Position numbers and translations under genes: made by a program. Shown here piece by piece: positions 5,051 through 45,706 of a DNA stretch of 46,636 nucleotides; positions within the stretch are counted from its first letter, which is position 1; each line of letters begins with the position of its first letter. The DNA is taken from NCBI GenBank assembly GCA_030378015.1, contig JAUCGG010000017.1, positions 1 to 46,636 of the forward strand. Direction: 5' to 3'. The DNA comes from Desulfococcaceae bacterium HSG8. Its GTDB lineage: Bacteria; Desulfobacterota; Desulfobacteria; Desulfobacterales; 4be13. The notes under the pieces are model-generated. The model worked only from the letters and a program-made list of their open reading frames with translations, was not told the origin of the DNA and searched no databases.

Positions 5051-5052
5051 TA

Positions 5053-5190: not shown

Positions 5191-5209
5191 ACAAACTTTG
5201 ATCCGGTAG

Positions 5210-5410
5210 GGCGCATTTACAACTTGGGGGAGTCCCGGAGGGACGACTGAAAATAGCCCGGCAATTTATTGCCTGGGCGGATATCCCCCGTTTTTTTCAG
5301 TCCCGGAGGGACTGAATGATCCGGAATACTCACCCGGCAATGAATTGCCGGCTATTTTCAGAAGTCCCTCCGGGGACTGAAAATCACTCCCCCGACTTAT
5401 AAATACGCCC
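5210..5410. mobile_element. Family D MITE (~200 bp). TIR gggcgcatttacaactt / aagtYataaatacgccc; internal gagtcccggagggacgactgaaaatagcccggcaat palindromes.
   Basis: Second copy at 27612-27845 is flanked by a 9-bp duplication, atccgtttt. Confidence 0.7.
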
Positions 5411-11655: not shown

Positions 11656-11740
11656 CAGCAGGTCGAAAACTTTCCGATAACCCTTTGTGAACATCGGATT
11701 TCGGGTTAAAATTAAAAACATCCGTTTTTAATTTTTATGT
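11656..11740. repeat. Partial family E element (left arm).
   Basis: cagcaggtcgaaaactttccg...ggatttcgggttaaaattaaaaacatccgttttt. Confidence 0.55.
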
Positions 11741-11834
11741 GGAAGTATTTTGTGTTTAGGGATTTCTCAATAAATAATCTGCCCCGTCTGACCTTAATTT
11801 TAATCTTGCTCTTTATCTTTATCAAGCAGGAGAA

Positions 11835-11912
11835 GGAGCGAGAGCACAAGAGCAAGGGCAGGAGCAAGAGTAAGAGCAAGATACCGGGTATATTAATTTT
11901 GGGGAAATACCT
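11835..11912. repeat. Family H element, copy 2 (agcaag microsatellite + ataccgggtatattaattttggggaaatacc).
   Basis: Matches 205-290. Confidence 0.6.
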
Positions 11913-12024
11913 TACTTAAAGGTTTCCCGAAATTTTAGTTCTGATACGGAAAGCCTTGCTTATAAGGGATTTGCAGATCCGTCACTCCGCAGGAGCCGGT
12001 TTTAATTTATTTTCACAGCCTTTC

Positions 12025-12185
12025 TTATTTTAACCACGAAAGACACGAATTATATTCTTTTTCCGGTATCTTTCATATCAGCATAAAGGCAACTGACACT
12101 CCGGTTCGCAGTTCCGCCTTCGGCAACCGCGAACCGGAAAATGAAGGACGCTCTCTTTTTTTCGTGTGTTTCGTGGTTAAAAGGC
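12025..12185. mobile_element. MITE-like element with TIR ttttaaccacgaaagacacgaa / ttcgtgtgtttcgtggttaaaa and central hairpin ggttcgcagttccgccttcggcaaccgcgaacc.
   Basis: Inverted termini and central stem read directly. Confidence 0.6.
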
Positions 12186-12465
12186 ACTGGTTCAGTTCAA
12201 TGGAATTTTTCAGGAAATTTCCCGGATTTGCCTAAAAAAAACAGCCAGTTGCCGTATTTTCGGTGTACATATCTAACATGCTGATTTTACATGATTGCCA
12301 CTGTTTGCGAAAGTTTTCGATCTACTGACCATGATCATTTTGTGATTCTGACGTATTACATCTCATCGTTAAAATATAGCCGTCATCTGTTCAGAATGCT
12401 AAATATAACCAAGCTTAATATTCAATAAGTTAATATTCAATAAGTTAACGCACGTTCATTTAGTA

Positions 12466-12640
12466 TCAGCAGATCGAAAACTTTCTGTCCGACAGTGAAT
12501 TCCGGGTTAAAATCGGAAGATATTCATCTTCCGGTTTTCCCGGAATGACAATTTAACATACTGTTATTCCAGAAAAAATCAAAAAAAGATATTTTCAGAT
12601 TTAACCTGGAATCCACTGCTTGCGAAAGTTTCCAATTTTG
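12466..12640. mobile_element. Family E MITE copy (degenerate right end). Solo right-end fragments at 12295-12330 and 28680-28720.
   Basis: tcagcagatcgaaaactttctg...ccggaatgaca...ctgcttgcgaaagtttcc. Confidence 0.6.
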
Positions 12641-16290: not shown

Positions 16291-17093
16291 TATGAAAACA
16301 GATGCCTTATTTTACATGCTTTTCCGACTCTCCCCGGAGCCTGTTCCGGCTTGTTAAGCTGAATCTGCAGGGAAAGTATGCTTTCGAGAGCATCACCGTC
16401 AAAACCACCGGAAAACGGTTCGACGGTTTTATGAAACGGACAGACGGCGAAGGACCGAACGTGTTCGTCGAAATTCAGGGCTACGACGATAACACGATTT
16501 ACTGGCGGTCTTTCCGTGAAGTATGTATGTGGTACGAGGAGAATGACAGCAGCAGACCGTTTATCCTGGTTATTCTTTTCACTGATGAAAAATATGATCC
16601 CGACAACCGTATGCTGTCTTGCAGACCTCCGTGCCGGCTGATCCGGAAAAATCTCGCAGACTGTCTGAAAGGGATAGGAAAGAAGGCGGGCGTGCTGACC
16701 GTTCTGAAACCGTTACTTCTTTCGGACAGCAAAAAAGACAGGGAGAAGCTGCCGAAGCTTGTTCCGCAGTGGGAGGAAGAAATCCGCTCCCCTGAACTGT
16801 CGGAACATGAAACAAAGGAAATGACAGAACTACTGATTTATGCGATTATGCAAAGATTCTCAGATCTTAATTTGGAAGAGGTACAGAAAATGATACAATT
16901 AACACCGCTTGACCAGACCGTTGCCGGTCAGGAGCTTATTCAGATAGGGATGGATAAAGGCGAAAAGAAGACTCAGGAAAAAACTGCCCGGAGCCTGCTT
17001 TCAATGGGATTGCTGACCCCGGCCCAGATTTCTCAGGCTACCGGGTTAAGCATAAAGGAAGTTAAAGGCCTTAAAAATTCGATAAAGCAATAA
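16291..17093 (+). pseudogene. DUF2887/Rpn-family (PD-(D/E)XK nuclease-like) protein, paralog 1. A 1-nt deletion near codon 16 shifts the frame relative to paralog 2.
   Basis: atgaaaacagatgcc... encodes MKTDALFYMLFRLSPEPVPAC-stop. The conserved body (KLNLQGKYAFESITVKTTGKRFDGFMKRTDGEGPNVFVEIQGYDD...) continues in the +1 frame from the internal ATG at 16302. Compare ctctccccgg here with ctctcgccccgg in copy 2. Could be a sequencing error. Confidence 0.55.
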
Positions 17094-17264: not shown

Positions 17265-17473
17265 GAAGAGCGGGCGCGCAAACGGATATAAAAAATATCA
17301 GATTTTGCTTGACAACAGACTCTGTCTGTGTCAGGGGAATCGGGAACAGCTATCAGGAAATACACGGAATTATGAATCAAGTAAAAATAACTGAGGTTAT
17401 CAGATAGATAAAATTCGGATCAGAGCAGTTTGCCTGAGTGAAAACCCCGATATTTAATACCCGGCAGCAAATT
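17265..17473 (+). promoter_or_regulatory. Second copy of the conserved leader upstream of DUF2887 paralog 2.
   Basis: See 16060-16290. Confidence 0.45.
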
Positions 17474-18277
17474 ATGAAAACAGATGCGTTATTTTACAGA
17501 CTGTTCCGACTCTCGCCCCGGAGCCTGTTCCGGCTTGTTAAGCTGAATCTGCAGGGGAAGTATGCTTTCGAGAGCATCACCGTCAAAACCACCGAAAAAC
17601 GGTTCGACGGTTTTATGAAACGCACGGACGGCGAGGGACCGAACGTGTTCGTCGAAATCCAGGGCTATGATGACGACACGATTTACTGGCGTTCATTCCG
17701 CGAGGTATGCATATGGTACGAGGAAAACAAAAGCAACAGACCGTTCATATTGATCGTTCTTTTTGTTGACGGTAAATATGATCCCGACAACCGTATGCTT
17801 TCGCCCAGACCTCCGTGCCGGCTGATCCGTAAGAATCTTGCAGACTGTCTGAAAGGGATAGGAAAAAAGGCTGGCGTACTGACCGTGCTGAAGCCGCTGC
17901 TTCTTTCGGACAGCAAAAAAGACAGGGAGAAGCTGCCGGAGCTTGTGCCCCGATGGGAGGAAGAAGTCCGCGCCCTTGAACTGCCGGAACATGAGACAGA
18001 CGAACTGACAGAACTGCTGCTATATGCCATTGTGCAGCGGTTCCGGAAACTTACCATGGAAGAGGTGAAAAAAATGATACAGTTGACACCGATAGATCAG
18101 ACTGTTGTCGGTCAGGAGCTTATTCAGATAGGGATGGATAAAGGCGAAAAGAAGACTCAGAAAAAAACTGCCCGAAGCCTGCTTTCAATGGGATTGCTGA
18201 CCCCGGCCCAGATTTCTCAGGCTACCGGGTTAAGCATAAAGGAAGTTAAAGGTCTTAAAAATTCGATAAAACAATAA
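17474..18277 (+). CDS. DUF2887/Rpn-family (PD-(D/E)XK nuclease-like, putative transposase/recombination-promoting nuclease) protein, paralog 2, intact (267 aa).
   Basis: MKTDALFYRLFRLSPRSLFRLVKLNLQGKYAFESITVKTTEKRFDGFMKRTDGEGPNVFVEIQGYDDDTIYWRSFREVCIWY matches the cyanobacterial-type DUF2887 N-terminal pattern (TDKLFYRLF...FQSVEVKQTAFRIDGVF...PVYFVEVQFQKD...). C-terminal IQLTPIDQTVVGQELIQIGMDKGEKKTQKK...LLSMGLLTPAQISQATGLSIKEVKGL resembles the DUF4351 tail. The track start 17438 is upstream; the conserved Met is at 17474. Confidence 0.7.
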   Translation: MKTDALFYRLFRLSPRSLFRLVKLNLQGKYAFESITVKTTEKRFDGFMKRTDGEGPNVFVEIQGYDDDTIYWRSFREVCIWYEENKSNRPFILIVLFVDGKYDPDNRMLSPRPPCRLIRKNLADCLKGIGKKAGVLTVLKPLLLSDSKKDREKLPELVPRWEEEVRALELPEHETDELTELLLYAIVQRFRKLTMEEVKKMIQLTPIDQTVVGQELIQIGMDKGEKKTQKKTARSLLSMGLLTPAQISQATGLSIKEVKGLKNSIKQ

Positions 18278-18562: not shown

Positions 18563-19364
18563 ATGAAAACAGATGCGTTATTTTACAGACTGTTCCGACT
18601 CTCTCCCCGGAGCCTGTTCCGGCTTGTTAAGCTGAATCTGCAGGGGAAGTATGCTTTTGAGAGCATAACCGTCAAAACAACAGAAAAACGATTCGACGGT
18701 TTTATGAAACGGACGGACGGCGAAGGACCGAACGTGTTCGTCGAAATCCAGGGCTACGATTTACTGGCGGTCTTTCCGCGAAGTATGCATGTGGTACGAG
18801 GAGAATGACAGCAGCAGACCGTTTGTCCTGGTTGTTCTTTTCACTGATGAAAAATATGATCCCGACAACCGTATGCTGTCATGCAGACCTCCGTGCCGGC
18901 TGATCCGTAAAAATCTCGCAGACTGTCTGAAAGGAATAGGAAAACACGCTGGTGTGCTGGCCGTCCTGAAGCCGCTGATTCTTTCGGACAGCAAAAAAGA
19001 CCGGGCAAGGTTGCCGGAGCTTGCGCCGCAGTGGGAGGAAGAAGTCCGATCCCTTGATCTGCCGGAACATGAAACAAAGGAAGTGACAGAACTGCTCGTT
19101 TATGCAGTTATGCAAAGATTCTCAGACCTTAGTTTGGAAGAGGTGAAAAAAATGATACAGTTAACCCCCCTTGATAAGACCGTCGCCGGCCAGGAGCTTA
19201 TTCTGATAGGGGTAGAAAAGGGAGAGATGATTGGGAAAATTCAGACAATACAGCATGTTTTGAAACGCCCGGTCTCTTCCAGAGAAAAGCTTCTGCCAAA
19301 AGATATTTATGAACTGAAAACAATACTTGGAAAATTGGAATCTGCAATGGACATGATGAGATAA
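18563..19364 (+). pseudogene. DUF2887/Rpn-family paralog 3, disrupted by an 11-nt deletion (frameshift at ~18768), with a divergent C-terminal extension.
   Basis: ggctacgat|ttactggcgg here versus ggctacgacgataacacgatttactggcgg in copy 1. The track splits it into 18563..18808 and 18789..19364. Confidence 0.7.
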
Positions 19365-24307: not shown

Positions 24308-27259
24308 CTATCCGCTCTGCAAAACCTCCCTCAGAATAGAGATCAGATCCTCAAATCCGATCTTTCCGTCGCCGCTGATATCTGGACTCAGCTCCGTGTT
24401 ATCGGTGTTCATGCCAGTCAGCATCCGCAGAATCCGTATGGCATCGCCCAGGTCAGCATTATCGTAAACTGTATTTGTCCTGATTTTCACTTCCGATTCT
24501 GTTGTCGTATCAGGATCAGAGAGAGAAGCGGCGGTAATCATGACAGTATTCTCTGCTCCCGGTTCGGAAGGCACTGTGATCTCCAAAGAAAGATTTTCCC
24601 GTGTGAGAGATCCGACTTCGACGGAAGACGGCAGACCGTTCATCTCCCAGTCTTCAGCATCGCTCACTTCCAACGTGTAAGTATCGTCAGCCGGACTGTT
24701 ATTGACAATAAAAAGTTCGGCAGTGACAGTCTCCCCGCCTTCCGCGCTTACATGCAGAGGTGCGATCAGGATAACATCATAAAGAATCTTTGCAGGGCCG
24801 GTTACAACATTAGGTGCATCAACTATTTCGGAAAGGTTTTCATTATCATCCAGCAGGATTGTGTCCGCGAAAATTTTGACCTGATTTCCTGCCTGAAGCG
24901 CATTCCCCGATGTTCCCCGGAGATCAATCACACCTCCGGTTCCGACTGCGAGGGTGATCATATCTGTTGCGGAAATGGCTTGGCTGCTGAGATTCGTGAG
25001 ATCAAGGGTCAGGTTATCCCCCCCGAAGATAGTGATATCTTCGGCATCGTAAATCCGTGCGCTGTCGCCTGTCACCGCTATGCTCGGATCTATCATGACC
25101 CGACTGCCGCTGCCGCCAAGGCCGACTTCCCCGTTCTGACTGACAGATTTGGCGACAAGATGCACATTCCCACCGCTTCCCGGTGTTGCCCCGTCTGCTG
25201 ATTCCCGCAAAATCTTTTCAGCATCCCCTCCTCTCCCGCTGTAAATTCTGCCGGTATTTGTGTTTAGCAAGGCATTTGCGGCATGGAGTACGGTATCACC
25301 TCCGTTGCCTCCGGTCGCATTGCCGTAACTCCCATGATGGGTTCCCATTCCGCCGTTACCTTTTTCACTATCACTGGCGGGACCTATAACCCCTTCGTTA
25401 GTAATGTCTTCCCCGGATATGAAGATTACGCCTCCGTGACCTCCTTCGGCATAATCGTTGTCGTGTCTTATTATTTCATCTCCCCCGCGGCCAGCCTGGA
25501 TATTGCCGGTCTCCCCGTTATATATCTCAGGGGCTTCCAGTATTACGCTGCTTCCCGGTCTGGCGCGGATATAGTCTGACAGGCTGGTTCCTCTTCCGTT
25601 TGCCCCGTCTGCCCCGACAATATATCCCTCGTTACGGATGAGGGTATCTGCTGTCAGCCTTAAATCTTTTCCCGCCGGGGTTTCCAACGTGCCATAATTG
25701 TAAAACCCGCTGACCCTGATCGGAGTGGCGCAGATAAGCGTATGCCCGGGATTAATCTGTGCCACATCCCCGGGGCCGGGAATATCACCTGTCCCTGTAA
25801 CTCTTGACCAGGTATTCGGATCATTCCATGACCCGCCGGAGCGGGATGCAATTATCGGATCTGTGGTTTCCGGGAGAATTGTCGTAGTCGTTGTTGTTGT
25901 TGTTGTCGTAGTAGTCGTTGTCGTTGTTGACGCAGGAAGAGTTGTAGTAGTTTCAGGCAGGGGGATTGTCGTTGTTGTGGTCGTCAGTGTTGTAGAAATA
26001 ACTGTGGTGGTTGTCGTGCTTGTGGTTGCGCTGGTAGTAGTCGTTGAAGCCGCGGGTTTTGTCGTCGTTGTGGTCGTATTTGCCGAACCGGTTGTCGTTG
26101 TTATCGAACCAGTTGTCGTTGTTACCGGAACAGTTGTCGTTGTTGACGGAACAGTTGTCGTTGTCGTCGGGATAGTTGTCGTTGTTGACGGAACAGTTGT
26201 TGTCGTTACCGTGAGAATATCGAAATTGTACCGGATGGTCAGGCCTGCCGAAACATTGCTGCTGCTCCAACAGTAATCTGCGTACCCGATTACTTCCCCC
26301 TCATAAGATACCACGTTTCTTCTTCCGTCGCCGGTTGTCTCAATGATGAAAGCTACAGAACTGCCAGGTATCCATCCTGGCCTTTTAACAATCTGACCAA
26401 GCAGTCCTCTGATATCTATCTGAGGTATTGCATTCAGACCGGGGGATACACATACAGTGACAGGGCCGTATGCACCGAAAAGTCTGCCGGATATATTATT
26501 CTGGCCTGATGTGAATTCCGAAGCATTATCAACAGCCTGTGCATATATGTTGAGCGTGATTTCACCTTCCTTGACCCCGGGCCATTCAGGCGCGACATGC
26601 GTGGCCCCGGGATTCGGGGATGAATCAGGGCATACATAACCCGACTCCGGGGGGTTTTTAAAAGTTAATTTCGCTACCTGGACCGTGCAGTCCTTGGGAG
26701 CAGTGACGTCATTGAAACGAAAGCCCGCGGTTGTAGCCGCCTCCAGCATGATGGCTCTGTTCTCATCAGGGTACGGCTCCTCTTCTGTCCCCTTTACATT
26801 GCCTGACGCATCTTCTTCAGCATCATCCGGAGCGGCTTTGTAGGACTCTGTGACGATAAATTTTACATCAATTGTACAGTCTTTCGTAACAGTCAGGGTA
26901 TATTCCGCATCTTTGCTGCTCTGTCCGTCGTCAAATACCAAGTCATAATATACGGATACCGGTTCAGGATCACCTTCGCAGGTCAGGATTACGTCGTAAA
27001 TCTTGTAAATCTGGTTAGCCGTCTGGGGAGCGCGAACCAGCCTGAATGTCAGGTCGGTTCCTGCGGTTATGCCTGAAACCCCGACGGGTGACAGGATATC
27101 CGGCGGATCAATCAGCTTCGCCCCTTCATACTCGACACTTCCGCCGAAATCATCTGTAACATTGACCGTTACCGTGAATTGTGCCTGGGCACCGGCGACG
27201 TTAAATATACCTCCGAATAGCAGGAAAACAAATATTATTACTGTGCTTTTTCTTAACAT
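24308..27259 (-). CDS. Secreted Thr-rich surface protein (983 aa). Order: signal peptide, ~330-aa N-terminal domain, ~130-aa poly-Thr/Pro linker, Gly-rich beta-helix-like region, C-terminal dockerin-like module.
   Basis: MLRKSTVIIFVFLLFGGIFNVAGAQA signal. TTTTVPSTTTTIPTTTTT...TTTTTTTTTTTTTTTTT linker (DNA 25850-26250). GG/GNGG-rich repeats. C-terminus DISGDGKIGFEDLISILREV (dockerin-type Ca loop). Confidence 0.75.
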   Translation of the reverse strand: MLRKSTVIIFVFLLFGGIFNVAGAQAQFTVTVNVTDDFGGSVEYEGAKLIDPPDILSPVGVSGITAGTDLTFRLVRAPQTANQIYKIYDVILTCEGDPEPVSVYYDLVFDDGQSSKDAEYTLTVTKDCTIDVKFIVTESYKAAPDDAEEDASGNVKGTEEEPYPDENRAIMLEAATTAGFRFNDVTAPKDCTVQVAKLTFKNPPESGYVCPDSSPNPGATHVAPEWPGVKEGEITLNIYAQAVDNASEFTSGQNNISGRLFGAYGPVTVCVSPGLNAIPQIDIRGLLGQIVKRPGWIPGSSVAFIIETTGDGRRNVVSYEGEVIGYADYCWSSSNVSAGLTIRYNFDILTVTTTTVPSTTTTIPTTTTTVPSTTTTVPVTTTTGSITTTTGSANTTTTTTKPAASTTTTSATTSTTTTTVISTTLTTTTTTIPLPETTTTLPASTTTTTTTTTTTTTTTTILPETTDPIIASRSGGSWNDPNTWSRVTGTGDIPGPGDVAQINPGHTLICATPIRVSGFYNYGTLETPAGKDLRLTADTLIRNEGYIVGADGANGRGTSLSDYIRARPGSSVILEAPEIYNGETGNIQAGRGGDEIIRHDNDYAEGGHGGVIFISGEDITNEGVIGPASDSEKGNGGMGTHHGSYGNATGGNGGDTVLHAANALLNTNTGRIYSGRGGDAEKILRESADGATPGSGGNVHLVAKSVSQNGEVGLGGSGSRVMIDPSIAVTGDSARIYDAEDITIFGGDNLTLDLTNLSSQAISATDMITLAVGTGGVIDLRGTSGNALQAGNQVKIFADTILLDDNENLSEIVDAPNVVTGPAKILYDVILIAPLHVSAEGGETVTAELFIVNNSPADDTYTLEVSDAEDWEMNGLPSSVEVGSLTRENLSLEITVPSEPGAENTVMITAASLSDPDTTTESEVKIRTNTVYDNADLGDAIRILRMLTGMNTDNTELSPDISGDGKIGFEDLISILREVLQSG

Positions 27260-27287
27260 TTTATTGACCTCCTTTTTAAATTGTTTA

Positions 27288-27335
27288 ACAAATAAAATAC
27301 CTGAAGATGTAGGGTGGGTGGAGCGAAGCGTAACC
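27288..27335. repeat. Hairpin element gtagggtgggtggagcgaagcgtaacccacc. An inverted copy lies at 28975-29012.
   Basis: The two copies are reverse complements and bracket the 1.7-kb MITE-filled spacer. Confidence 0.6.
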
Positions 27336-27543
27336 CACCTTTTGCTGTTATTATTTATTATTTATTATCTCGACAGTCATAAGTTCTCTGAAGCCGCTGT
27401 TCTGAGTCCCCCTTTTTTAAAGGGGGATTCAGGGGGATTTCAGCAGGTTGGGGGAAATCCCCCCCGGCCCCCTTTAAAAAAGGGGGGAGTTTCCTGGTGA
27501 GCCATTTCAGCTATTTATGAGAACTTACGACTCACGAGTTATT

Positions 27544-28275
27544 ATCAGCAGATCGAAAAATTTCCGGTTAAACAGTGGATTCCGGGTTAAAATTAAAAAA
27601 CATCCGTTTTGGGCGCATTTACAACTTGAGGGAGTCCCGGAGGGACGACTGAAAATAGCCCGGCAATTTATTGCCGGGGGCGAATGTCCCCGTTTTTCAG
27701 TCCCGCAGGACGAATGAAAAGCTTTTTTTCAGCCGTCCCTACGGGACGTGATGATCCGGAATACTCACCCGGCAATGAATTGCCGGGCTATTTTCAGTCG
27801 TCCTCCGGGACTGAAAATCACTCCCCTGACTTGTAAATACGCCCATCCGTTTTTTAATTAATTTTCCCCGGAATGACAGCTTTAAACTATTGTCATTCCG
27901 GGGAAAATCGGAAAACGGATGTTTTCCGATTTTAACGGGCGCATTCCCAAAAAGTAGGAAATTCTCGTTCCCAAGCTCCGTCCGCCTGGAATGCATCCTG
28001 AGAGGCTCTGCCTCGTTTTTTGTTTTAAAACAGACAAGTTAAGCGAAATATCCTGCAAGGCAGAGCCTTGCGGAATGCATTCCCAGGCAGAGCCTGGGAA
28101 CGAGTAAAAAATATCCGTTTTTTAATTTTCCCCGGAATGACAGCTTTAACCTATTGTCATTCCGGGGAAAATCGGAAAACGGATGTTTTCCGATTTTAAC
28201 CCGGAATCCACATTCCGGAAAAGCATCCTGATTTTCCCCGGAATGACAATTCGGGTAAACCACAAAATCCGTTAG
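27544..28275. mobile_element. Nested MITE cluster. A family E element is interrupted by a family D element (27612-27845) and a family F element (27945-28108), followed by more family E hairpins.
   Basis: Family E reads ...aaaaaacatccgtttt | family D | catccgttttttaattaattttccccggaatgaca. The 9-bp atccgtttt is duplicated on both sides of family D. Family F is inserted after ...ccgattttaac. Confidence 0.65.
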
Positions 28276-28294
28276 AACCAGTATTATTTATTAT

Positions 28295-28615
28295 CAGCAG
28301 ATCGAAAAATTTCCGGTAAACCCTTTTAAACAGTGGATTCCGGGTTAAAATGTTAAAAACATCCGTTTTTTTATTTTCCCCGGAATGACAGTTTTAAACT
28401 ATTGTCATTCCGGGGAAAATCGGAAAACGGATGTTTTCCGATTTTAACGGGCGCATTCCCAAAAAGTAGGAAATTCTCGTTCCCAGGCTCCGCCTGGGAA
28501 TGCATCCTGAGAGGCTCTGCCTCGTTTTTTGTTTTAAAACAGATAAGTTAAGCGAAATGTCCTGTAAAACAGAGCCTTGCGGAATGCATTCCCAGGCAGA
28601 GCCTGGGAACGAGTA
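28295..28615. mobile_element. Second family E copy (28295-28445) with a family F element (28445-28615) inserted at the same relative site.
   Basis: ...ggaaaacggatgttttccgattttaac|gggcgcattcccaaaaagtaggaaattctcgttcccagg... is identical to the junction at 27940. Confidence 0.6.
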
Positions 28616-28737
28616 ATATTTTGAATTTTATGGTAATCTGTATGCAGCCTACTTTTGGGGAATGCTCCCATTTTAACCCGGGGTCCACTGTTTGCAGAAG
28701 TTTTCGATCTGCTGATTATCAGTAGGCATCCTTCATT

Positions 28738-28800
28738 TATCAGTTTACACTTCACTGTAGAACAATCTTTCAAATTGTTTTAAACAATTTGAAAAATTGT
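28738..28800. repeat. Near-perfect 60-bp palindrome ctgtagaacaatctttcaaattgttttaaacaatttgaaaaattgttctacag.
   Basis: Read directly. Nested inner palindrome caaattgttttaaacaatttg. AT-rich, unlike the GC-rich REP families. Confidence 0.6.
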
Positions 28801-29056
28801 TCTACAGCCGGAAAAAGTGCAAACTACTTTTCAGCTTTTTATCAGTAGATGGAAATGCCCTTAAACCGCTCCGGGCAGACTGATAAATCCGCCTGAAATG
28901 CCTGGGCATTTGTTAATCCCAAGCGAGCATTTCGGGAGCACTTTCCATCTACTGATTATCTTATTATCAGTTATACGGTGGGTTACGCTTCGCTCCACCC
29001 ACCCTACATCTCCGTTTGGGAGTACACTTCGTGTACGCAAAACCGAAGTTTCGCGT

Positions 29057-29641
29057 TCAGCAGCGTTTCTTAAACTTTCTCCTGATTCCCGCAAGAGCGG
29101 CCAATCCGGAACCCAGCAGCCACAGTGATCCGGGAATGGGAATGACACTGATGTTCCCGCTTTCCGGATTTGCGGAAAGAGAATCTCCTGAGAAGTCGCC
29201 GAGAATCGGATCTTCGGGAAATGACAGCGGGCTGTTTCCCATGCCGATGCCTGTAAAGGAAAGCGTCGCCAGGGCAAAGGAGTCAGACTGGAAGCTTAAA
29301 TCATCAAGCAGGGAAAGCTCCCTGAGGTGTATTGTACCGCCGAGATTGCCGTCGCCCCAGTTCAGCGCATCATAATCCGAGATATCGCCCAGTCCGGTTC
29401 CCAGGGTGTAATCGTTAAAATCCAGGACGCTATTGTCGTAGTTCACATTGAAATCAAATGTGCCCAGGTCATCATTTTCCAAACCTGAGACAACAATATC
29501 CACGTCAGTCATCCCGCCGATCCCAATCACCGAGTCGGACGGATCGAAGGAGAGGTTTGCCGCCCATGCCTGATCACTGACAAACATGGCAATAAACATC
29601 GCAAATAAACATGTTAGAAATTTTTTCCCCAGTTTTTTCAT
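29057..29641 (-). CDS. Small secreted protein (194 aa): signal peptide, cohesin-like beta-sandwich domain, PEP-CTERM-type C-terminal sorting signal (PIP variant).
   Basis: MKKLGKKFLTCLFAMFIAMFVSDQAWA signal. GGMTDVDIVVSGLENDDLGTFDFNVNYDNSVLDFNDYTLG follows the type-I cohesin pattern (G.TV.VPV.LS.V...I...DF.L.YD.NVLE.....G). C-terminus VIPIPGSLWLLGSGLAALAGIRRKFKKRC is a Pro motif + hydrophobic helix + Arg/Lys tail. Confidence 0.6.
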   Translation of the reverse strand: MKKLGKKFLTCLFAMFIAMFVSDQAWAANLSFDPSDSVIGIGGMTDVDIVVSGLENDDLGTFDFNVNYDNSVLDFNDYTLGTGLGDISDYDALNWGDGNLGGTIHLRELSLLDDLSFQSDSFALATLSFTGIGMGNSPLSFPEDPILGDFSGDSLSANPESGNISVIPIPGSLWLLGSGLAALAGIRRKFKKRC

Positions 29642-29719
29642 GATAATACCCTCCTTTCTTTAAAATGTTTGAGTGTAAAGGAACTCCGAATAAGATACCC
29701 GGTTCGGGGAGACGACCCC

Positions 29720-30085
29720 TCCTGCTCGGTTCGGATTGACAAATCCGAACCCCGGCGGGGGATTTGCCAATCCCCCGCGAGCAACAACGGGCAATCCTCC
29801 GCGAGCAGCGCCCATCTTGCTCGGTTCGGATTGACAAATCCGAACCCCGGCGGGGGATTTGCCAATCCCCCGCGAGCAACAACGGGCAATCCTCCGCGAG
29901 CAGCGCCCATCTTGCTCGGCTCGGATTGACAAATCCGAACCCCCGGCGGAGATTTGCCAATCCCCCGCGAGCAACAACGGGCAATCCTCCGCGAGCAGCG
30001 CCCATCTTGCTCGGTTCGGATTGACAAATCCGAACCCCGCGGCGGGGGATTTGTCAATCCCCCGCGAGCAGCAGCGGGCAAAATA
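29720..30085. repeat. Tandem array of 4 copies (period 95 bp) of family G: ctgctcggttcggattgacaaatccgaaccccggcgggggatttgccaatcccccgcgagcaacaacgggcaatcctccgcgagcagcgcccatcttg.
   Basis: Period measured between successive ctcggttcggattgac. Each unit has two hairpins and ttgaca/ttgcca motifs. A solo copy lies at 13033-13103. Confidence 0.75.
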
Positions 30086-30415
30086 AAGCCTTTTCCTGCA
30101 ACGGAAAATCCCCCCGGCCCCCTTTACGAAAGGGGGAGGAATTCTACTATTATCAATTCGTAAATTAAATTCTCCCCCCTTTTTTAAAGGGGGGCCGGGG
30201 GGGATTTCCGCCGTAACAGCCTTTTCCTGCAACGAAAAATCCCCCCGGCCCCCTTTACAAAAAGGGGAGGAATTCTACTATTATCAATTCGTAAATTAAA
30301 TTCTCCCTCCTTTTTTAAAGGGGGCCGAGGGAGATTTCTGCCGTAACAGCCTTTTCCTGCAACGAAAAATCCCCCCGGCCCCCTTTACGAAAGGGGGAGG
30401 AATTCTACTAATTCC
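30085..30415. repeat. Tandem array of about 2.7 copies (period ~125 bp) of a family C variant (cttttcctgcaacgRaaaatccccccggccccctttacRaaaggggg aggaattctactattatcaattcgtaaattaaattctccc..ttttttaaaggggggccgRggg.gatttc.gccgtaacag). The last unit is truncated exactly at the stop codon of the 5059-aa gene.
   Basis: Units start at 30090, 30222 and 30343. The stop TAG of the giant gene (complement of cta 30408-30410) lies within the ctacta of the repeat. Confidence 0.7.
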
Positions 30416-33400
30416 CATCACAGGTACATTCCGGACAGTCGCACAGCAGCACGAGCTTTCTCGCGTCCAGGACTGTGATTGTCCCGTCCCCGTCAATGTC
30501 GCATTCCATGCAGATACCGGCATCCTCATTCAGATGAATCCCGATAATGTCAACATCATCAAGGTCTATGACGCAGTCATCGTTGAGATCACCGGCTCTG
30601 TCATCGGGAACACCGCATCCGCAGTCACCCGTTTCGATTTTATACGGATCATCGGGGCATCCGTCGCAGGCATTTCCCTGGCCGTCGCTGTCCGTGTCAG
30701 TCTGATCCGGGTTCGAAGCACTGGCGCAGTTGTCACAGGCATCTCCCACATCGTCGCTGTCCCTGTCCTCCTGATTGTAATTGGCATCGCCGGAGCAGTT
30801 GTCACAGGCATTTCCCACGCCGTCTTTATCTGCATCTGCCTGGCCCGGGTTGGGAGTGCCGACACAGTTGTCAACTCCGTCACAGACCGTGTCCTGATCT
30901 GCATCAAGACAGTCATCGCAAGCGTCACCCAGCCCGTCGCTGTCCGTGTCAGTCTGATCCGGGTTGAAAGTGCCGGGGCAGTTGTCATCTTCATCACAGA
31001 CATTGTCATTATCCATATCAACGCACGCATCACAGATATCGCCTATGCCGTCGCTGTCCGCGTCTGTCTGATCCGAATTGGAGGTGCTGGCGCAGTTGTC
31101 ACAGGTATCTCCGACTTCGTCCCCGTCCCCGTCTTCCTGGTCCGGGTTGGCATCATCGGGACAGTTGTCACAGGTATCCCCGACTTCGTCCCCGTCCGCG
31201 TCTTCCTGATCCGGGTTTTCAATGTCGGGACAGTTATCGCACGCGTCTCCGAGTTCATCGCCATCCGCATTTTCCTGATCCGGATTTTCAATGTCAGGAC
31301 AATTATCGCAGACATCTCCCAGGGCATCGCCGTCCGTATCAGTCTGATCCGGGTCGGGATCACTGACACAATTATCACACGCGTCGCCGAGACCGTCGTT
31401 GTCAGTGTCCATCTGATTAATGTTTCGGGTGCCAAGGCAATTATCCACGTCATCGCAAACACTGTCCTGATCAGCATCCGCTACTGTACCGCCCCAGTCG
31501 CCGTTGCAGTCCTGGGAACAGGCAACTTTCCCGGTGTTTCCGCCGACACATTCTCTGCAGTTATCAACGGTGGCAGTTCCGCCCCAGTCATTGTTGCAGT
31601 CCTGAGAACAGGCAATTTTCCCGGTATTTCCGCCGACACATTCTCCGCAGTTGTCAACGGTGGCAGTTCCGCCCCAGTCATCGTTGCAGTCCTGAGAACA
31701 GGCAACTTCCCCGGTGTTTCCGCCGACACATTCGCCGCAGTTATCAACGGTGGCAGTACCGCCCCAGTCATCGTTGCAGTCCTGGGAACAGGCAACTTCC
31801 CCGGTGTTTCCGCCGACACATTCTCCGCAGTTATCAACGGTGGCAGTTCCGCCCCAGTCGCCATTGCAGTCCTGAGAACAGGCAACTTCCCCGGTGTTTC
31901 CGCCGACACATTCTCCGCAGTTATCAACGGTGGCAGTTCCGCCCCAGTCGCCATTGCAGTCCTGAGAACAGGCAACTTCCCCGGTGTTTCCGCCGACACA
32001 TTCTCCGCAGTTATCAACGGCGGCAGTTCCGCCCCAGTCGCCATTGCAGTCCTGGGTGCATGTGCTGGTGTTGCCGGTATTGCCGCCGACACATTCGCCA
32101 CATTCGTCAGTATATGCAGTGCCGCCCCAGTCTTCGTTGCAGTCCTGAGAACAGGCAGGCAATCCCTCATCAGCGATGCCGTCGCAGTTGTCATCGGTGC
32201 CGTTGCAGATTTCTGTCGCATCAGGATTCACATCTTCGTCCTCATCGTCACAGTCACAGACATCGCCCCATCCGTCTCCGTCAGTATCGGTCTGATCCGG
32301 GTTGGAATCATCCGGGCAGTTGTCATTGCTGCCGCAGAGACCGTCACCGTCAGCATCGGCCAGAGTGGTCATGGGTTCATCTTCATAGAAAGGACAGTAC
32401 GCCACATTTTCGGAAATGGCATCACCGCTGCCGCATCCCGCTTCTGACGGGCCATCCGCAGCTTCCCAATAATTATACCTGGCGTTAATTGGGGAGGCAT
32501 AATCTCCGTCAACTGTGACGGCAAGCTCGTTGCTGATAAATCTGTTTTCACGGACAAGGTGTTCGGGATACGTCATATCCGTGTCCATGCTGAATTTTAT
32601 GGCCGTGTCATTATCTTCAAACAGATTGCCTTCGATAATGCTTGGCAGATGTGTTCCGCCTCCTGCGCCATAGTATTTCCAGTCAATGGCAGGTTCGTCA
32701 TCCGGGTCAGGCTGAAAACCGTTTGTCGCATTTCTGAAGACATTGTCGTAAATGCGATGATCACCGAAAGTCTGGCCAGCCGCGTCAGGACATCCGTGTC
32801 CGTTATAAATGGCGTCGCTGCACCCGTCAAAAACATTGTTATAAATGTCGTACCCCTGACTGTTGGACATGGTCATACCGCCCAGGGTTTCATCTGTATT
32901 ATTATAGATATGCACCGGGGCATTGCCGGAACCGTCCCGCGGGGCAAACCGGTTATGGCACAGGAACATGGAGGTTGCCCAGTGGCCGGCATCCCCGGAT
33001 GCTCTGTCCTCAACAAAGCGATTGTCGTGGATGCTCAGGCTCAGAGGGCCGCTGCGGGCTTTGTATATCATTACACCCGCGCCCCATTCGGCACCCGGAT
33101 CACTGCGGCCGTTAAAGGTGAAGCCGGAAATCTCGTAATTCATGTTCCCGGTGTACCCGTCCATGTTGCCGACAAGACATTTTCCCTCAGCAGGAGCGAT
33201 CCAGGTCACATCATCCTGTCCCTCTCCGAGGATTGCAAGGTTTTTCCCCGGCGTCAGAGTGACTTGCTCGGTATATGTCCCTGCTGCAACGTGGACAGTG
33301 CCGCCGGAGTTCACCTGATCAACCGCCGCCTGGATGGTCTTCTTGGCGTCAGTCCATGAGGTGCCGCCGTTGCTGTCATCGCCGTTGTCGTCAGCGTAGC

Positions 33401-36400
33401 AGTCATCGGTGCATTGCAGTCTTTCGATCTCCACCAGGTAGTCCTCAACCTCGCCGTCAGGGACAAAACCCGTGGGCTGTAATCCGCCACTCATGCTCAG
33501 GCGGAAGCGGGCGTAGGTGGGTCCTATAACAGCATCGGACGGAACCACGAAAGTGAGATTGTTGACGGGGTTAGGCTGACCGTTCAACAACTGGCTCACA
33601 CCACCCCACAGATGCTCGGCTTGGTGATCAAAAACGCCGTTGCCGTTAAAGTCGATCCAGGCATCCAGCATCCCGCCAGAAGGTCCGCCATCCACGATAA
33701 CTGTGGAACTCGTTCCCGCTGTCAGCACCGGCGGCAGGGTCACGCCGTCCTCGTCGTCGGGCATGCCGGGGGGATTCAGGTCGTCGCCGTCTGCCAGCGG
33801 TGAAGGCTGGCCGTCCGGCTCCGCGTCCACTATCGGTCCCAGGCTGTGTCCCCGGACGATGGCGTGGCGGGCGCCGTTGCCGGCCAGCAGTGTGCCGTAG
33901 CTGTCCGGAGCGTCGCCGTAGTCCAACGGCAGGCGGTTGTGGAAGGTACATTTGACCGTCTCACCGGCTTCGACCTGGAAGTTGGCTCTGAAGTCGGCCA
34001 GACTGACGGTGCTGTTGCCGTCGTCACATACGATGCTGGTCAGTTCCCAGCCTGCCGGCACTGTTTCCTGGGAGGTGTAGCTTCCCGGAAGCAGGTCTGA
34101 CACCACGATCTGCCCGCCGTCCGAGATGGTTCCGGAGGCGTCATCGCCGAAGGTGAAGCTGTCAGGTGCGCCATCGGGGTCGGTCTGCTTTTCAACGATG
34201 ATGGTTCCCCGCTTCTGAGTGTTGGTAAAGACACATCTGACTGTCTCACCCGCTTCAACCTTGAAGGTGGCGGTTTTCGTGTTCACGTCGCCGCTGCTGT
34301 CCCCGGTGGGGTCGTAACACCGGATGGAGGTCAGGTTCCAGCCTGCGGGCACGATTTCTTGCGAGGTGTAGGTTCCCGGCAGCAAGTTGCTGGACACGAG
34401 CGACGCGTCGTCCGTGATGCTTCCGTCAGCGTCGCCGCTGAAGGTGAAGCTGTCAGGTGCGCCATCGGGATCGGTCTGCTTTTCGACGATAATTGTGCCT
34501 CGCTGCTGAATGTTGGTAAAGATGCAGGTTACCGTCTCACCAGCCCCGAGGCCGATTACACTCGGGTCACTGCCGTCGTCGCAGGTGGCGCTGGCCAGGT
34601 TCCAACCGGCCGGGAGGTTGATCTCGTCCACCGAGTAGGTGCCGGGAGTGAGAGGGCCGGAGTTGTTCGTCCCGTCATCAACCAGGGAAAAGTTGGGACC
34701 ATAGTCAGTGCCAAACTCAAAGCTCTCGGCCGAGCCGTCAGGGTCGGTCTGCTTCTCAACGATGATCGTTCCCCGCTTCTGAGTGTTGGTAAACACACAT
34801 CTGACCGTCTCACCAGCGTCGAGTCCGATCGCACCCGGGTCGCTGCCGTCGCTACAGGTGGCGCCGGTCAGGCTCCAACCGACCGGGACGCTCTCGATCA
34901 CCGAGTAGGTGCCCGGAGTGAGAGGGCCGGAGCTGTTCGTCCCGTTATCGCTCAGGGAAAAGCCGGAACCGTAGCTGGGGCTGAAATCAAAGCTCTGATC
35001 CGAGCCGTCAGGGTCGGTCTGCTTTTCAATGATGATCGTGCCGGGGTGGGTATTGCTGAAGGTACAGACCACATCCTCACCCGCACCGACCGCCACCGAC
35101 AAGGTTTCACCGGTCAGACTGCCGCCGGCCCCGGTACAGGTGGCATTGTCCAACTGCCAGCCGCCGGGCAGGCTTTCGATGATCTCATAAGTGCCGGCGG
35201 GCAGGCCATTGAAGGTGACACTTGAGCTGACGCCGTCGCCATCATCCGGGTTGGCGTCATCCAGGGTGAAGCTGGCCATGACCGGCAACGCCTCCACCTT
35301 GCGAATACGATGGTTAGACCTGTCAGAAATTAAGAGGTTGCCGGCGTTATCAAACACGACACCAGTGGGGTTATGCAGGTTGGCACTGGTCGCCGGGCCA
35401 CCGTCGCCGCCAACCCCCCCTGTGTCATTGCCAGCCACCGTGCTGATGTTGCCCGTGGTGGCGTCCACCTTACGAATACGATGGTTCCACTGGTCAGCAA
35501 TGAAGAGGTTGCCGGCGTTATCAAACACGACACCAGTGGGGTAATACAGGCTGGCACTGGTCGCCGGGCCGCCGTCGCCACCAGAGCCACCCGTGCTGAT
35601 GTTGCCCGTGGTGGCGTCCACCTTGCGAATACGATTGTTTTTATAGTCAGCAATGAAGAGGTTGCCGGCGCTATCGAACGTAACACCAATGGGCTCATTC
35701 AGGTTGGCACTGGTCGCCGGGCCACCGTCGCCACCAGAGCCACCCGTACCATTGCCGGCCACCGTGCTGATGTTGCCCGTGGTCGCGTCCACCTTGCGAA
35801 TACGATGGTTATACCAGTCAGCAATGAAGAGGTTGCCGGCGCTATCGAACGCGACACCAATGGGGTAATACAGGCTGGCACTGGTCGCCGGGCCACCGTC
35901 GCCGCCAAAGCCCCTTGTGCCATCGCCGGCCACCGTGCTGATGTTGCCCGTGGTGGCGTCCAGCTTGCGAATACGATGGTTCGACAGGTCAGCAATGAAG
36001 AGGTTGCCGGCGCTATCGAACGCGACACCATAGGGACCATTCAGGCTGGCGTTAGTCGCCGGGCCACCGTCGCCGCCAAAGCCGCTCGTACCATTGCCGG
36101 CCGCCGTGCTGATGTTGCCCGTGATGGCGTCCACCTTGCGAATACGATGGTTCCACTGGTCAGCAATGAAGAGGTTGCCGGCGCTATCGAACGCGACACC
36201 ACCGGGGTAATTCAGGCTGGCGTTAGTCGCCGGGCCACCGTCGCCGCCAAAGCCCCCTGTGCCATCGCCGGCCACAGTGCTGATGTTGCCGCCAAGCACA
36301 CTCACTGGAATGTTGCTGGTAAAGTCAAAGTCGGCACCGTCCTGAGGGGTGGCTTGTTTGATGATAGTGAGAGTTCCCCGTTCCTGGCTGTTGGTGAAGA

Positions 36401-39400
36401 CGCAGGTGACTGTCTCGCCCGGATCAAGGCCGATGGCGCCCGGGTCGCTGCCGTCGCTACAGGCGACGCCGGTCAGGTTCCAACCGGCCGGGAGGTTGAT
36501 CTCGTTCACCGAGTAGGTGCCGGGAGTGAGAAGAGGGCCGGAGTTGTTCGTCCCGTCATCAGCCAGGGAAAAGTTGGGACCATAGTCAGTGCTGAACTCA
36601 AAGCTCTCGGTCGAGCCGTCAGGGTCGGTCTGCTTTTCGACGATGATGATGCCTGGCTCCGGTTCTTCAATCTCCACCATGTAGTCCTCGACCTCGCCGT
36701 CTTCGGCCGGACCGCCGCACGGAGTCAGTGGCCCAAGGGTATTAATTCGGAAGCGGGCGAATGTTTGCCCGGGCACTATATCCGGGGGCACGCTGACCAC
36801 TGGCGCATTCACACCGGTCGTATAGACTCCGGGAGAATAGTTTCCGGAAACAACATGCTCCCGGCCGCCCATATCACCCCAGACGCCACTGCCGTTAAAG
36901 TCAATCCAGCCGTCAACATAAGCCGGACCATTATTAACCTCAAATGTAATGGCAGCTTGTTGCCCTTGATACAATACAGGTATTGACACCCCGTCTTCAT
37001 CATCAGGATCAGTACCGGCGTTATCATCACCCATTGCGGCTGGGTCTGGCTGGCCGTCAGCTTCCGCATCGGGATCATCTGAAGGATCACCGATACCCAG
37101 AAAGGGAGCGCCGGGGACGATGATATGGCTTGCCCCATTACTGGCAGCCAGAGTGCAGTATGGCGTATCCGGCGCATCGCTATAGTCCAGGCCATGCGGG
37201 CTCGGATCGCAGGCATCGCCCAGGCTGTCGCCGTCCGTGTCTGTCTGACCCATATTGGGAACGTCCGGGCAGTTGTCCTGACCATCGGGTACGCCGTCCT
37301 CATCGGTGTCTGTAAAACAGTCCATTTCATATATGTACGCAGAGCCGGAACCGAGAGCTTTCTCATCATCGCTGGTCCCTACGAGGACATAATTGCCGGA
37401 CATGAAGACAGAATAGCCAAAGTAATCATAGTTATTACCCTGTCCGTCATAGGCGGTGAACTTTGCCTGCTGTACCCAGGAGGTTCCGTCATAATGAAAA
37501 ACATAAGCAGCGCCAAAATCGGCTCCGTTATCACCATCCCCGATGGCCCCGACGACGGCATAATCGCCGGAAACGGAAACAGATTGGCCAAATCTGTCAT
37601 CCTGCGCCCCGTCGTCAGCAGTGAGCTTTGCCTGCTGTGTCCAGGAGGTTCCGTCATAATGAAAAATGTATGCGGACCCGGAATCGCTCCCCCTGTCATC
37701 ATCATAGATAGCCCCGACGACGGCATGATCACCGGACACGGAGACAGATCTGCCAAAGCGATCACCCTGCGCCCCGTCGGCGGCCGTGAGCTTTGCCTGC
37801 TGCACCCAGGAGGTTCCGTCATAATGAAAAACATAAGCAGAGCCGGAATCGCTCCCCTTGTCATCATCATAGCGGGCCCCCACGAGGGCATAATCACCGG
37901 ACACGAAGACAGATATGCCAAAGTGATCACCCTGCGCCCCGTCGTCTGCGGTGAGCTTTGCCTGTTGCATCCAGGAGGTTCCGTCATAATGAAAAATGTA
38001 TGCAGACCCGGAGTCAACCCCTTTGTCATCATCATAAAAAGCCCCCACGAGGGCATAATCGTCGGACACGGAGACAGGGACGCCAAAATGATCACCCTGC
38101 GCCCCGTCGTGGGCGGTGAGTTTTGCCTGCTGTGTCCAGAAGGTTCCGTCATAATGAAAGACATAAGCAGAATCCTGGTAAGCCCCCACGACGGCATAAT
38201 CGCCGGACACGGAGACTGACTGTCCAAAGCTGTCACCCTGGGTCCTGTCGTTTGCGGTGAGCTTTGCCTCCTGTGTCCAGGAGGTTCCGTCATAATGAAA
38301 AATGTATGCGGCACCGGTATAGTCATCGGGGGAACCGGAATCGCTCCCGTTGTAATCATCCCCGGGAGACCCAACGACGGCATAACCGCCGGATACGGAG
38401 ACAGAATGGCCAAAATTATCATAGGCCGCCCCGTCGTCTGCGGTGATCTTGAATTCGGTCGCATCGGCAAAACTGCAGTTGTCCGGGTCAAGCGGGAAGG
38501 CGTCATGCTCATCGTTCACGCCGTCATTGTCGTCGTCCGGGTCGGCATTGTCGCCGATGCCGTCCTCATCATTGTCAGACTGTTCGGTCGCATCAAGCGG
38601 GAATGCGTCATCCGCATCGTTCACGCCGTCATTGTCGTCGTCCTCATCGCAGACATCACCTAGATTGTCACCGTCCGTGTCTTCCTGATCCGCATTGGAG
38701 ATGTCCGGGCAATTGTCCTGAGCATCAGGTACGCCGTCCTCATCGCTGTCTGCAAAGCAGCCAATTCCGTATATATACGCGGAGCCGGAACCGCCATCGT
38801 CCCCGTAAGCCCCCGCGATGGCATAATTGCCGGACATGGACACAGCGTAGCCAAAATAATCATCCGCCGCCCCATCGGGAGCAGTGAGTTTGCCCTGCTC
38901 TGTCCAGGATTCCCCGTTATAATGAAAAACGTACGCAGAGCCGGAATCGCTTTCACTGTCATCATTCCAGCGAGTCCCGACGAAGGCAGAACCGCCGGAC
39001 ACGGACACAGCGTGGCCAAAGCGATCACCCGGCGCCCCGTCGGAAGCGGTGAGTTTGGCCTGCTCGATCCAGGATTCTCCGTCATAATGAAAAACATAGG
39101 CCGAGCCTGAGGAACTGCCCCTGTCATCATCTCTGTAAGCTCCTACGATGACAGAATCGTCGGACACGGATACAGATACCCCGAAAGAATCGTACGCCGC
39201 CCCGTCAGAAGCGGTGAGTTTGGCCTGTTTGGTCCAGGCTTCCCCGTCATAATGAAAAACGTAGGCTGAACCTGAACCGCTGCCCCTGTCATCATCTCTG
39301 TCAGCCCCGACGACGGCAAAATCGTCGGACATGAACACAGAGATGCCGAAGGAATCATCCGCCGCCCCGTCGGAAGCGGTGAGTTTGGCCTGCTCTGTCC

Positions 39401-45654: not shown

Positions 45655-45706
45655 AATAAAAAAAGCCGGTTTGCCTTTTTCTCAGGCAACCCGGCTTTCT
45701 CAATGA
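45655..45706 (-). terminator. Hairpin aaagccggtttgcc-tttttctca-ggcaacccggcttt preceded on the plus strand by aaaaaaa. Candidate rho-independent terminator for minus-strand transcription coming from the right.
   Basis: 13-bp stem with one mismatch. The plus-strand A-run gives a U-tract on the minus strand. If real, it insulates the giant gene's promoter region (45588-45650). Confidence 0.45.

Follow-up and report, generated by a model that had tools for sequence, protein, structure and literature searches.

A nest of miniature transposons with target-site duplications in Desulfococcaceae bacterium HSG8 and the likely ISKra4 affinity of one of its families

Results

The DNA analysed here comprises 46,636 nucleotides of contig JAUCGG010000017.1 from Desulfococcaceae bacterium HSG8 (GenBank assembly GCA_030378015.1), henceforth referred to as the window. 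An intergenic gap of 1.8 kb within it (27260-29056) is made up almost wholly of repeats, direct and inverted, in which non-autonomous transposons are piled up and nested in one another. One of these, a 234-bp miniature inverted-repeat transposable element (MITE) designated D1, is inserted in the left arm of an element of another family, E, and is bracketed by a 9-bp target-site duplication (TSD). On the best explanation taken as a whole, family D is very probably a non-autonomous MITE of the ISKra4 family of insertion sequences (ISs), which belongs to the Mutator-like DDE elements.

Insertion of D into an E element

The two D copies of the window, with their terminal inverted repeats (TIRs) and the immediate surroundings of D1, are as follows (strand given where assigned).

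27546-27610 (+): outer left arm of E copy 1 as far as the point where D is inserted; end CAGCAGATCGAAAA..., aligning with the left arms of four other E copies
27602-27610: left TSD copy of D, ATCCGTTTT, directly abutting D1
27611-27844: D1, MITE, 234 bp; TIRs at 27611-27635 and 27820-27844 (end-pattern matches); no coding capacity
27845-27853: right TSD copy of D, ATCCGTTTT, directly abutting D1
5209-5410 (+): D2, the other D copy, 202 bp; carries an internal deletion and is about 88-90% identical to D1

The left end of D1 begins with GGGCGCATTTACAAC and the right end finishes with GTTGTAAATACGCCC as printed, which is GGGCGTATTTACAAG when reverse-complemented; the D-type end form is GGGCGCATTTA...GTTGGGGGAG. 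The 25-nt D end pattern matched four times in the window, at both ends of both D copies, compared to 0 matches expected from shuffles. As DNA, D1 is predicted to fold into one long hairpin (-83 kcal/mol, z = -13).

An earlier note on this DNA, made from its letters alone, had described D as nested in E with an intact 9-bp TSD, and had named membership of the repeat in the element consensus as the finding that would speak against it. Empty sites were compared over the whole window. Each uninterrupted E unit carries ATCCGTTTT once per arm, at 4790 (+) and 4852 (-), 28113 (+) and 28176 (-), and 28361 (+) and 28424 (-), whereas the interrupted unit carries two forward copies (27602 and 27845) against one reverse copy (27912). 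In-silico removal of D together with one copy of ATCCGTTTT yielded AAAAAACATCCGTTTTTTAATTAATTTTCCCC, colinear with the uninterrupted AAAAAATATCCGTTTTTTAATTTTCCCC and TAAAAACATCCGTTTTTTTATTTTCCCC; the empty-site form expected without D is CATCCGTTTTTTAAT. Because this comparison restores colinear E sequence, the ATCCGTTTT repeat is a target-site duplication and not part of the E consensus, and D, which sits in the left arm of E, truly derives from a transposon with TIRs and TSDs. By our own calculation, a 9/9 match between two abutting flanks has a chance probability of about 4e-6. The nesting and its TSD were thus borne out by the empty sites; the uninterrupted site of the second E copy lies at 28361-28369 rather than at 28330-28345, as had been cited.

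Relatives of D in other genomes

A scan for the 25-nt D end pattern, in which each GTDB species was represented by one genome, gave at least 24 matching loci. Among those listed, 22 are in one Desulfobacterales metagenome-assembled genome (MAG), one is in an Anaerolineales MAG and one in a Chloroflexota MAG. Twelve complete D-type copies were found outside the window, in two other MAGs, and TSDs of 8-9 bp flank 11 of the 12 (9 bp in eight cases, 8 bp in three). Those read from the copies include the following.

9-bp TSDs of D copies in the Desulfobacterales MAG: atgaggaac, gctttcatc, ttctccacg, atctaaaag, ttcaggaag
9-bp TSD with one mismatch, Desulfobacterales MAG: tccccaaac/tccccaacc
8-bp TSDs, Desulfobacterales MAG: tccagata, tttcagac, ctgacaac
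9-bp TSD of the Chloroflexota MAG copy: gtctgcacg

The duplicated sequences are unrelated to one another and display no sequence preference. The Chloroflexota element has only its ends and its TSD length in common with D, the interior being unrelated, so the ends are what defines the D family. Many of the D-type ends in the Desulfobacterales MAG lie within about 200 bp of a contig end. Scans of viral contigs with the D and F end patterns (family F is described below) gave 0 matches.

The Anaerolineales MAG locus (L003) holds a solitary D-type end, GGGCGCATTTATAAGTTGGGGGAGTG, at 7864-7888, directly upstream of the ATG of an open reading frame (ORF); its GGGGGAG sits where a ribosome-binding site would be expected, and the locus stops 112 nt further on.

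Comparison of the D ends with ISKra4 elements

ISAcas3 of Acaryochloris, a member of the ISKra4 group of the Mutator-like p-MULT 4 transposases, has the published end GGGCGTAGCCACTAGTTGGGGGAGTCC and a 9-bp TSD, and 9-bp TSDs are also given for ISAcce1, ISCasp2 and ISCasp3 of the same group (Guerillot et al. 2014, PMC3942029 Table S1). When the 104-aa N-terminal part of the ISAcas3 transposase, as translated from that table, served as protein query, a single fragment was recovered. The query used was a full-length transposase with the NCBI annotation ISKra4 family, encoded on an Acaryochloris plasmid; 13 of its homologues were aligned, and 80 metagenome loci encoding ISKra4 transposase homologues were compared.

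Recognisable inverted ends were present at 47 of the 80 loci, delimiting elements of typically 1455-1487 bp (about 1.46 kb). These autonomous elements end in GGGCGCATTTAYNAGTTGGGGGAG, and the consensus of the end downstream of the transposase gene, derived from 28 elements, is GGGCGCATTTAnnAGTTGGGGGAG. The four D ends of the window agree with the IS end consensus at 19-21 of its 22 specified positions (D1 at 19-20), and the ends of the MAG and Chloroflexota MITEs at 18-22 of 22. The best blastn matches sit exactly at the IS termini: L079 matches D1 at 25/28 positions, and L099 and L091 match the MAG ends at 23/24 and 25/27. D-like TIRs were found in five autonomous metagenomic elements (L079, L091, L098, L099 and L100), and of these, L079, L091 and L100 encode transposases with scores of 293-300 bits on the model NF033572, 'ISKra4 family transposase' (cut-off 205).

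Five distinct autonomous ISKra4 copies carry 9-bp or 8-bp TSDs on their own contig; among the 47 metagenomic ISs, only 6 show such a TSD. Two further 9-bp TSDs were recognised by eye across contigs, pairing the left flank of L039 with the right flank of L040 and the left flank of L037 with the right flank of L039. Because flanks pair across contigs in this way, the low number of own-contig TSDs points to chimeric assembly across IS copies and not to absence of TSDs. Several metagenome contigs (L036-L040) carry the same ISKra4 element, with 9-bp flanks that pair across contigs.

No ISKra4 transposase was detected by tblastn in the window or in the 24 MAG loci. Mobilisation of D must consequently be in trans, as the earlier note, which saw no transposase encoded in the window, had proposed for at least some of the families.

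Acido-Lenti-1 modules inside D

Both arms of D1 match the covariance model of Acido-Lenti-1 (RF01687) above its gathering score of 37 bits, and D2 carries one such module.

27633-27678 (-): left-arm Acido-Lenti-1 module of D1, with two hairpins, directly next to the TIR; 51.7 bits
27768-27812 (+): right-arm Acido-Lenti-1 module of D1, in the opposite orientation to the left one; 40.9 bits
5231-5276 (-): Acido-Lenti-1 module in D2; 42.4 bits

All three matches have the same two hairpins, conserved GGCUA linker and 3' ACU as RF01687. The first hairpin together with CTATTTTCAG is predicted to be terminator-like on both strands. Seven further sites in the MAG loci score 37-47.6 bits, the MAG MITEs L002, L004 and L021 being among the carriers. 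Acido-Lenti-1 was absent from the autonomous ISs of the ISKra4 loci compared. Locus L018 (Desulfobacterales MAG contig JAOZRQ010000068.1) contains, at 1326-1548 and outside any MITE, a tandem array of three Acido-Lenti-1 modules repeated every 67-68 bp, so the module also amplifies on its own.

The original description presents Acido-Lenti-1 as an RNA of Acidobacteria and Lentisphaerae that probably acts in trans, and its alignment includes Lentisphaera copies from one contig with a spacing of about 200 nt (Weinberg et al. 2010, PMC2864571). ISKra4-type ends were not found in the Lentisphaera flanks of that alignment; module and TIRs are thus separable. The occurrences reported here differ from the original ones in their Desulfobacterota host, in the presence of both orientations within transposon arms and in the tandem arrays of 67-68 bp. 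Because both orientations occur inside a MITE and tandem arrays exist besides, the sequences suggest that Acido-Lenti-1 may be a repetitive DNA module rather than a single-copy RNA gene, and in our reading it would be a repetitive hairpin unit captured between ISKra4 ends. A more far-reaching version holds that a self-amplifying, REP-like hairpin module was captured between ISKra4 ends in Desulfobacterota, giving a chimeric MITE with outward-facing terminator-like hairpins that spread in at least two Desulfobacterales genomes; we offer it tentatively, as a conjecture that is rather unlikely to hold in full.

Elements E and F and the remainder of the nest

At least five families are stacked within 1.7 kb: D, E, F with its relatives F', a palindromic element H, and poly-G/C palindromes. 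Their copies in the nest, and the E and F' copies elsewhere in the window, are listed below.

19-188: F-related MITE (F'); TIRs GGGTGTAATTAAAAGTGTTAG and GGGCGCAATTAAAAGTGTTAG; same GTTCCCAAAC...GTTTGGGAAC core as F
2255-2444: further F' copy
2472-2606: partial F' copy
4737-4937: uninterrupted E copy; 5-bp TSD AAATT (4732-4736 and 4938-4942)
11656-12327: E copy with a large internal insertion; 5-bp TSD ACCAT
12467-12640: diverged E copy; 5-bp TSD AGTAT
27369-27538: H, palindromic element; ends CTCGACAGTCATAAGTTCTC / CTCGTGAGTCGTAAGTTCTC; flanked by TTATTAT; inverted pairs
27845-27936: E inner hairpin unit A; ATCCGTTTT...TTTTCCCCGGAATGACA / TGTCATTCCGGGGAAAA...AAAACGGAT...ATTTTAAC
27937-28107 (+): F1, 3'-truncated F MITE (5' 171 bp), joined directly to the beginning of E inner unit B; aligns to F2 and diverges after GGGAACGAGTAA
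28108-28211: E inner hairpin unit B with 11 nt of the E right arm attached; reads ccgATTTTAACccggaatccac uninterrupted
28212-28289: rearranged remnant, a partial E left arm GATTTTCCCCGGAATGACA plus the AT-rich tract TATTATTTATTAT; read directly
28295-28714: E copy 2 with complete ends, 191 bp without F2 and its TSD; 5-bp TSD ATTAT (28290-28294 and 28715-28719)
28441-28448: left TSD copy of F2, ATTTTAAC, 8 bp; single in unit B
28449-28669 (+): F2, complete MITE, 221 bp; TIRs GGGCGCATTCCCAAAAAGTAGG and GGGAGCATTCCCCAAAAGTAGG (reverse complement)
28670-28677: right TSD copy of F2, ATTTTAAC; direct reading

E elements end in CAGCAGATCGAAAA on both sides. Repeats of 5 bp flank all four E copies of the window that have both ends, with the target pattern A-N-N-N-T, and an E copy in another MAG has the flanks ACTTT/ATTTT. 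E is therefore also a MITE, on account of its inverted ends and 5-bp duplications. Its inner units A, B and C could be aligned together, and the 79-nt core of unit A is 98.7% identical to that of unit B.

The complete F2 contains an internal hairpin (28476-28519 / 28570-28613) and runs on to 28669, beyond the end at 28615 that had been reported for the region. E inner unit B reads ccgATTTTAACccgg without a break and offers an empty F target, ATTTTAAC, at 28193-28200, about 250 bp from F2. Because this site is uninterrupted, the 8-bp repeat of F2 is also a real TSD. F1 has neither the right TIR nor a second TSD copy. The earlier note had placed F at an identical position in two E copies; the junctions are indeed identical to the base (TTTTCCGATTTTAAC|GGGCGCATTCCC, at 27936|27937 and 28448|28449), and the first of the two F copies is 3'-truncated, at 28107.

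D, E and F are all MITEs. D1 (234 bp), F2 (221 bp) and E (about 191-201 bp) are palindromic and leave no room for a transposase gene, and two D copies occur within 46 kb. Both F and F' ends have the terminal GGGCGCA(T/A)T of ISKra4 ends, and in F' the likeness covers most of the first 16 nt. In a blastn-short comparison of the F, F', E and H ends with the 80 ISKra4 loci and two Acaryochloris plasmid loci, nothing was found at IS termini. From the terminal motif, an ISKra4-type partner for F would be plausible, as a weak assignment.

The poly-G/poly-C palindromes (TCCCCCTTTTTTAAAGGGGG...CCCCCTTTAAAAAAGGGGGG) occur in the window at 27407-27488, 5071-5170 and 1-18. They are nested in other palindromic elements: the copy at 27407-27488 is enclosed by H (27369-27538), and another host element lies at about 4998-5197. 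A perfect 35-bp inverted repeat, AGATGTAGGGTGGGTGGAGCGAAGCGTAACCCACC, brackets the whole 1.7-kb nest at 27305-27339 / 28977-29011; each arm is itself a hairpin, just two copies exist in the window, and no flanking duplication is visible around them.

Other features of the contig

Two (-) strand ORFs adjoin the gap that holds the nest (27260-29056): the gap is upstream of one of 983 aa (24308-27259) and downstream of the other (29057-29641). At 29716-30046 a direct repeat with a period of 95 bp occurs three times in tandem (93-95% identity), among short overlapping ORFs and beside a weak cohesin-domain match. ORF 30408-45587 (-) encodes a highly repetitive protein of 5059 aa, and about 90 nt upstream of it a c-di-GMP-I-GGC riboswitch (RF03167, 72.7 bits) was found at 45681-45755 (-), which suggests cyclic di-GMP control of a giant surface or adhesin-like protein.

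An 829-aa ORF at 13192-15681 (+) has matches to the Pfam families MVP_shoulder, Vault_3 and Band_7 and resembles major vault protein. The tandem ORFs 16302-17093, 17438-18277 and 18789-19364 (+) share 85-90% nucleotide identity over 300-nt stretches; ORF 16302-17093, the sole one of the three that was scanned, matches DUF2887 (Pfam PF11103). The contig also encodes an IspH-UbiA fusion protein, whose best named relative outside HSG8 is from Desulfonema magnum (74%).

Discussion

The probable transposase of D

The interior of D, two inverted copies of the conserved Acido-Lenti-1 two-hairpin module, could be taken to mean that D is a REP/BIME- or REPIN-like element, moved through its internal hairpins by a REP-associated tyrosine transposase (RAYT) or another HUH enzyme of the IS200/IS605 type, with the flanking repeat being incidental. 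The tandem array of modules outside any MITE in L018 fits this picture, and such an organisation is in the style of REP and BIME elements. HUH-type (IS200/IS605) elements have neither TIRs nor TSDs. D-type elements, in contrast, have 25-nt TIRs and, in 11 of the 12 complete copies outside the window, 8-9-bp TSDs, and their TIRs match DDE-type ISKra4 elements. The Chloroflexota MITE shows the same TIRs and TSD length with no Acido-Lenti-1 match, so it is the TIRs and not the hairpins that are common to the family. Pfam detected no Y1/HUH transposase among nine large window ORFs, the proteins that were scanned. Movement by a HUH enzyme is considered very improbable. IS200/IS605 TnpA/TnpB, named in the earlier note among the transposases to search for, are unfit for the role since those elements are without TIRs and TSDs; its term 'REP-like' suits the Acido-Lenti-1 hairpin module within D, although D, E and F themselves are MITEs. 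Derivation of D from another DDE family that makes 8-9-bp duplications (IS256, IS1, the IS903 group of IS5, IS4 or ISL3), its likeness to ISKra4 being convergent, is an account to which we likewise give very little credence. It is true that TSD length alone cannot discriminate between IS256, IS1, the IS903 group, IS4, ISL3 and ISKra4. IS256 is, moreover, placed together with ISKra4 in the Mutator-like superfamily of prokaryotes (PMC3942029). D-type ends, however, share 19-22 of 22 conserved positions across 24 nt with elements whose transposase passes the ISKra4 equivalog model, the matches falling exactly at the termini of those elements, and IS256-family ends are different, for example GGGACTGTCAGGAATTCTGTG and GGGCGTGTCAAATGGTCTGTG (PMC3942029 table).

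The shared position of the two F copies

For the identical position of F in two E copies, the earlier note had left site-specific insertion and duplication of an already composite element side by side; the latter is favoured here. The shared position probably reflects the copying of an E+F composite. The left arms of E copies 1 and 2 are mutual closest relatives among the five E copies, and the two share an upstream flank of 7 nt (TTATTAT), or of 13 nt (TATTATTTATTAT) when H is excised; together these argue for the copying of a larger unit. Unit A with F1 is 93.9% identical to unit C with F2 over 264 nt, and the loss of the 3' end of F1 is expected from recombination among palindromic units. 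Two independent insertions by an F that recognises ATTTTAAC or the E hairpin would also give junctions identical to the base in both E copies. Such specificity has some precedent, since certain ISKra4-group elements are reported to insert upstream of sigma-A promoters (PMC3942029), and F1 and F2 differ at about 5-6% of positions, so the copy is not very recent. Yet an identical ATTTTAAC site stands empty in unit B, which separates the two F copies, and the three F' relatives (19-188, 2255-2444 and 2472-2606) do not lie within E elements. The close relationship of the two E left arms with their shared flank, the absence of the 3' end and second TSD copy from F1, as for a rearranged duplicate, and the lack of sequence preference in D-family TSDs point in the same direction, and site-specific insertion is considered unlikely. 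Three routes were tried, namely slippage giving a tandem duplication, an unequal crossover among E inner units, and a deletion between neighbouring E copies; none gave the observed order exactly.

Points that weigh against the assignments and a possible course of events

Several observations weigh against the ISKra4 assignment of D and the composite origin of the F arrangement. D2 has no TSD, which was looked for at 8-9 bp and further out. Among the MAG copies, the repeat of L002 is displaced by 2 nt and that of L021 matches at 7/9 positions. An autonomous ISKra4 element was not found in HSG8 in a search covering this contig only, and the partner ISKra4 elements all come from unrelated metagenome contigs. 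Each end of D1 is 2-3 positions off the IS consensus, so D1 may have lost its mobilisability. Agreement of the F and F' ends with the ISKra4 consensus is limited to 12-16 of 22 positions; for F it is concentrated in the terminal GGGCGCAT, for F' in the first 16 nt. Beyond that terminal stretch, the 80 ISKra4 loci contain no IS that matches them. Finally, the rearrangement to unit A, F1, unit B and remnant is not reproduced by a single simple event.

We infer the order of events, the route of the E+F duplication and the mover, which would be an ISKra4 transposase of HSG8 itself, as follows. E would be the older component, a palindromic MITE of about 190 bp that makes 5-bp duplications at A-N-N-N-T. 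F, a second TIR/TSD MITE family whose outer 16 nt or so resemble the same end type as D, may have inserted once into an E element at ATTTTAAC, giving the 8-bp TSD. The E+F composite would then have been duplicated, locally or by E-type transposition, and recombination among palindromic units may later have truncated one F copy. For D, an ISKra4 transposase encoded elsewhere would bind the D ends and cut out or copy the element, which would insert by staggered cleavage of the target, with repair leaving a 9-bp (sometimes 8-bp) duplication. One such event presumably brought D1 into the left arm of E copy 1, with duplication of ATCCGTTTT.

Significance and comparison with known systems

Nested MITEs with TSDs are already well established, and the nest described here is real but ordinary mobile-DNA debris. 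The present analysis contributes the probable placement of D in ISKra4, a complete F2 bracketed by a TSD of its own, a preference for duplication of the composite, and the connection with Acido-Lenti-1. One repeat family in a sulfate reducer related to Desulfonema is thereby assigned, very probably, to ISKra4, a family little studied outside cyanobacteria and resistance plasmids, and the same ends would mobilise MITEs with unrelated interiors in Desulfobacterota and Chloroflexota. For annotation, D-type elements break MAG assemblies, and Acido-Lenti-1 matches in such genomes would mark transposon arms and not small RNA genes. On the conjecture of a captured, self-amplifying module, and if that module is also a substrate of an HUH-type enzyme, D could be mobilised by two unrelated machineries.

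ISKra4-family ISs have the termini GGGCG(C/T)A...AGTTGGGGGAG(TCC) and the 9-bp target duplication in common with D, and the ends of the 1455-1487-bp metagenomic elements are almost identical to D ends. Both ends of D resemble the IS end downstream of the transposase gene. D differs from these ISs in its length of 234 bp, in having no transposase gene and in its unrelated interior of two inverted Acido-Lenti-1 modules; no description of ISKra4-derived MITEs was found in the literature searched. REP, BIME and REPIN elements, which are mobilised by RAYTs, resemble D in being intergenic inverted pairs of short conserved hairpins at very high copy number. They have no TIRs and no TSDs, whereas D has both, and the insertion mechanism of D is DDE-type for that reason.

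Like bacterial MITEs in general, the elements of the nest are short, non-coding, multi-copy, intergenic, nested and trans-mobilised, with TIRs, TSDs and hairpin folds. Known bacterial examples include the Correia elements, ERIC/IRU, RUP, the cyanobacterial Nezha and the nested MITEs of Microcystis. The elements described here differ from those examples in their cognate IS family, very probably ISKra4 in the case of D, and in their Desulfococcaceae host.

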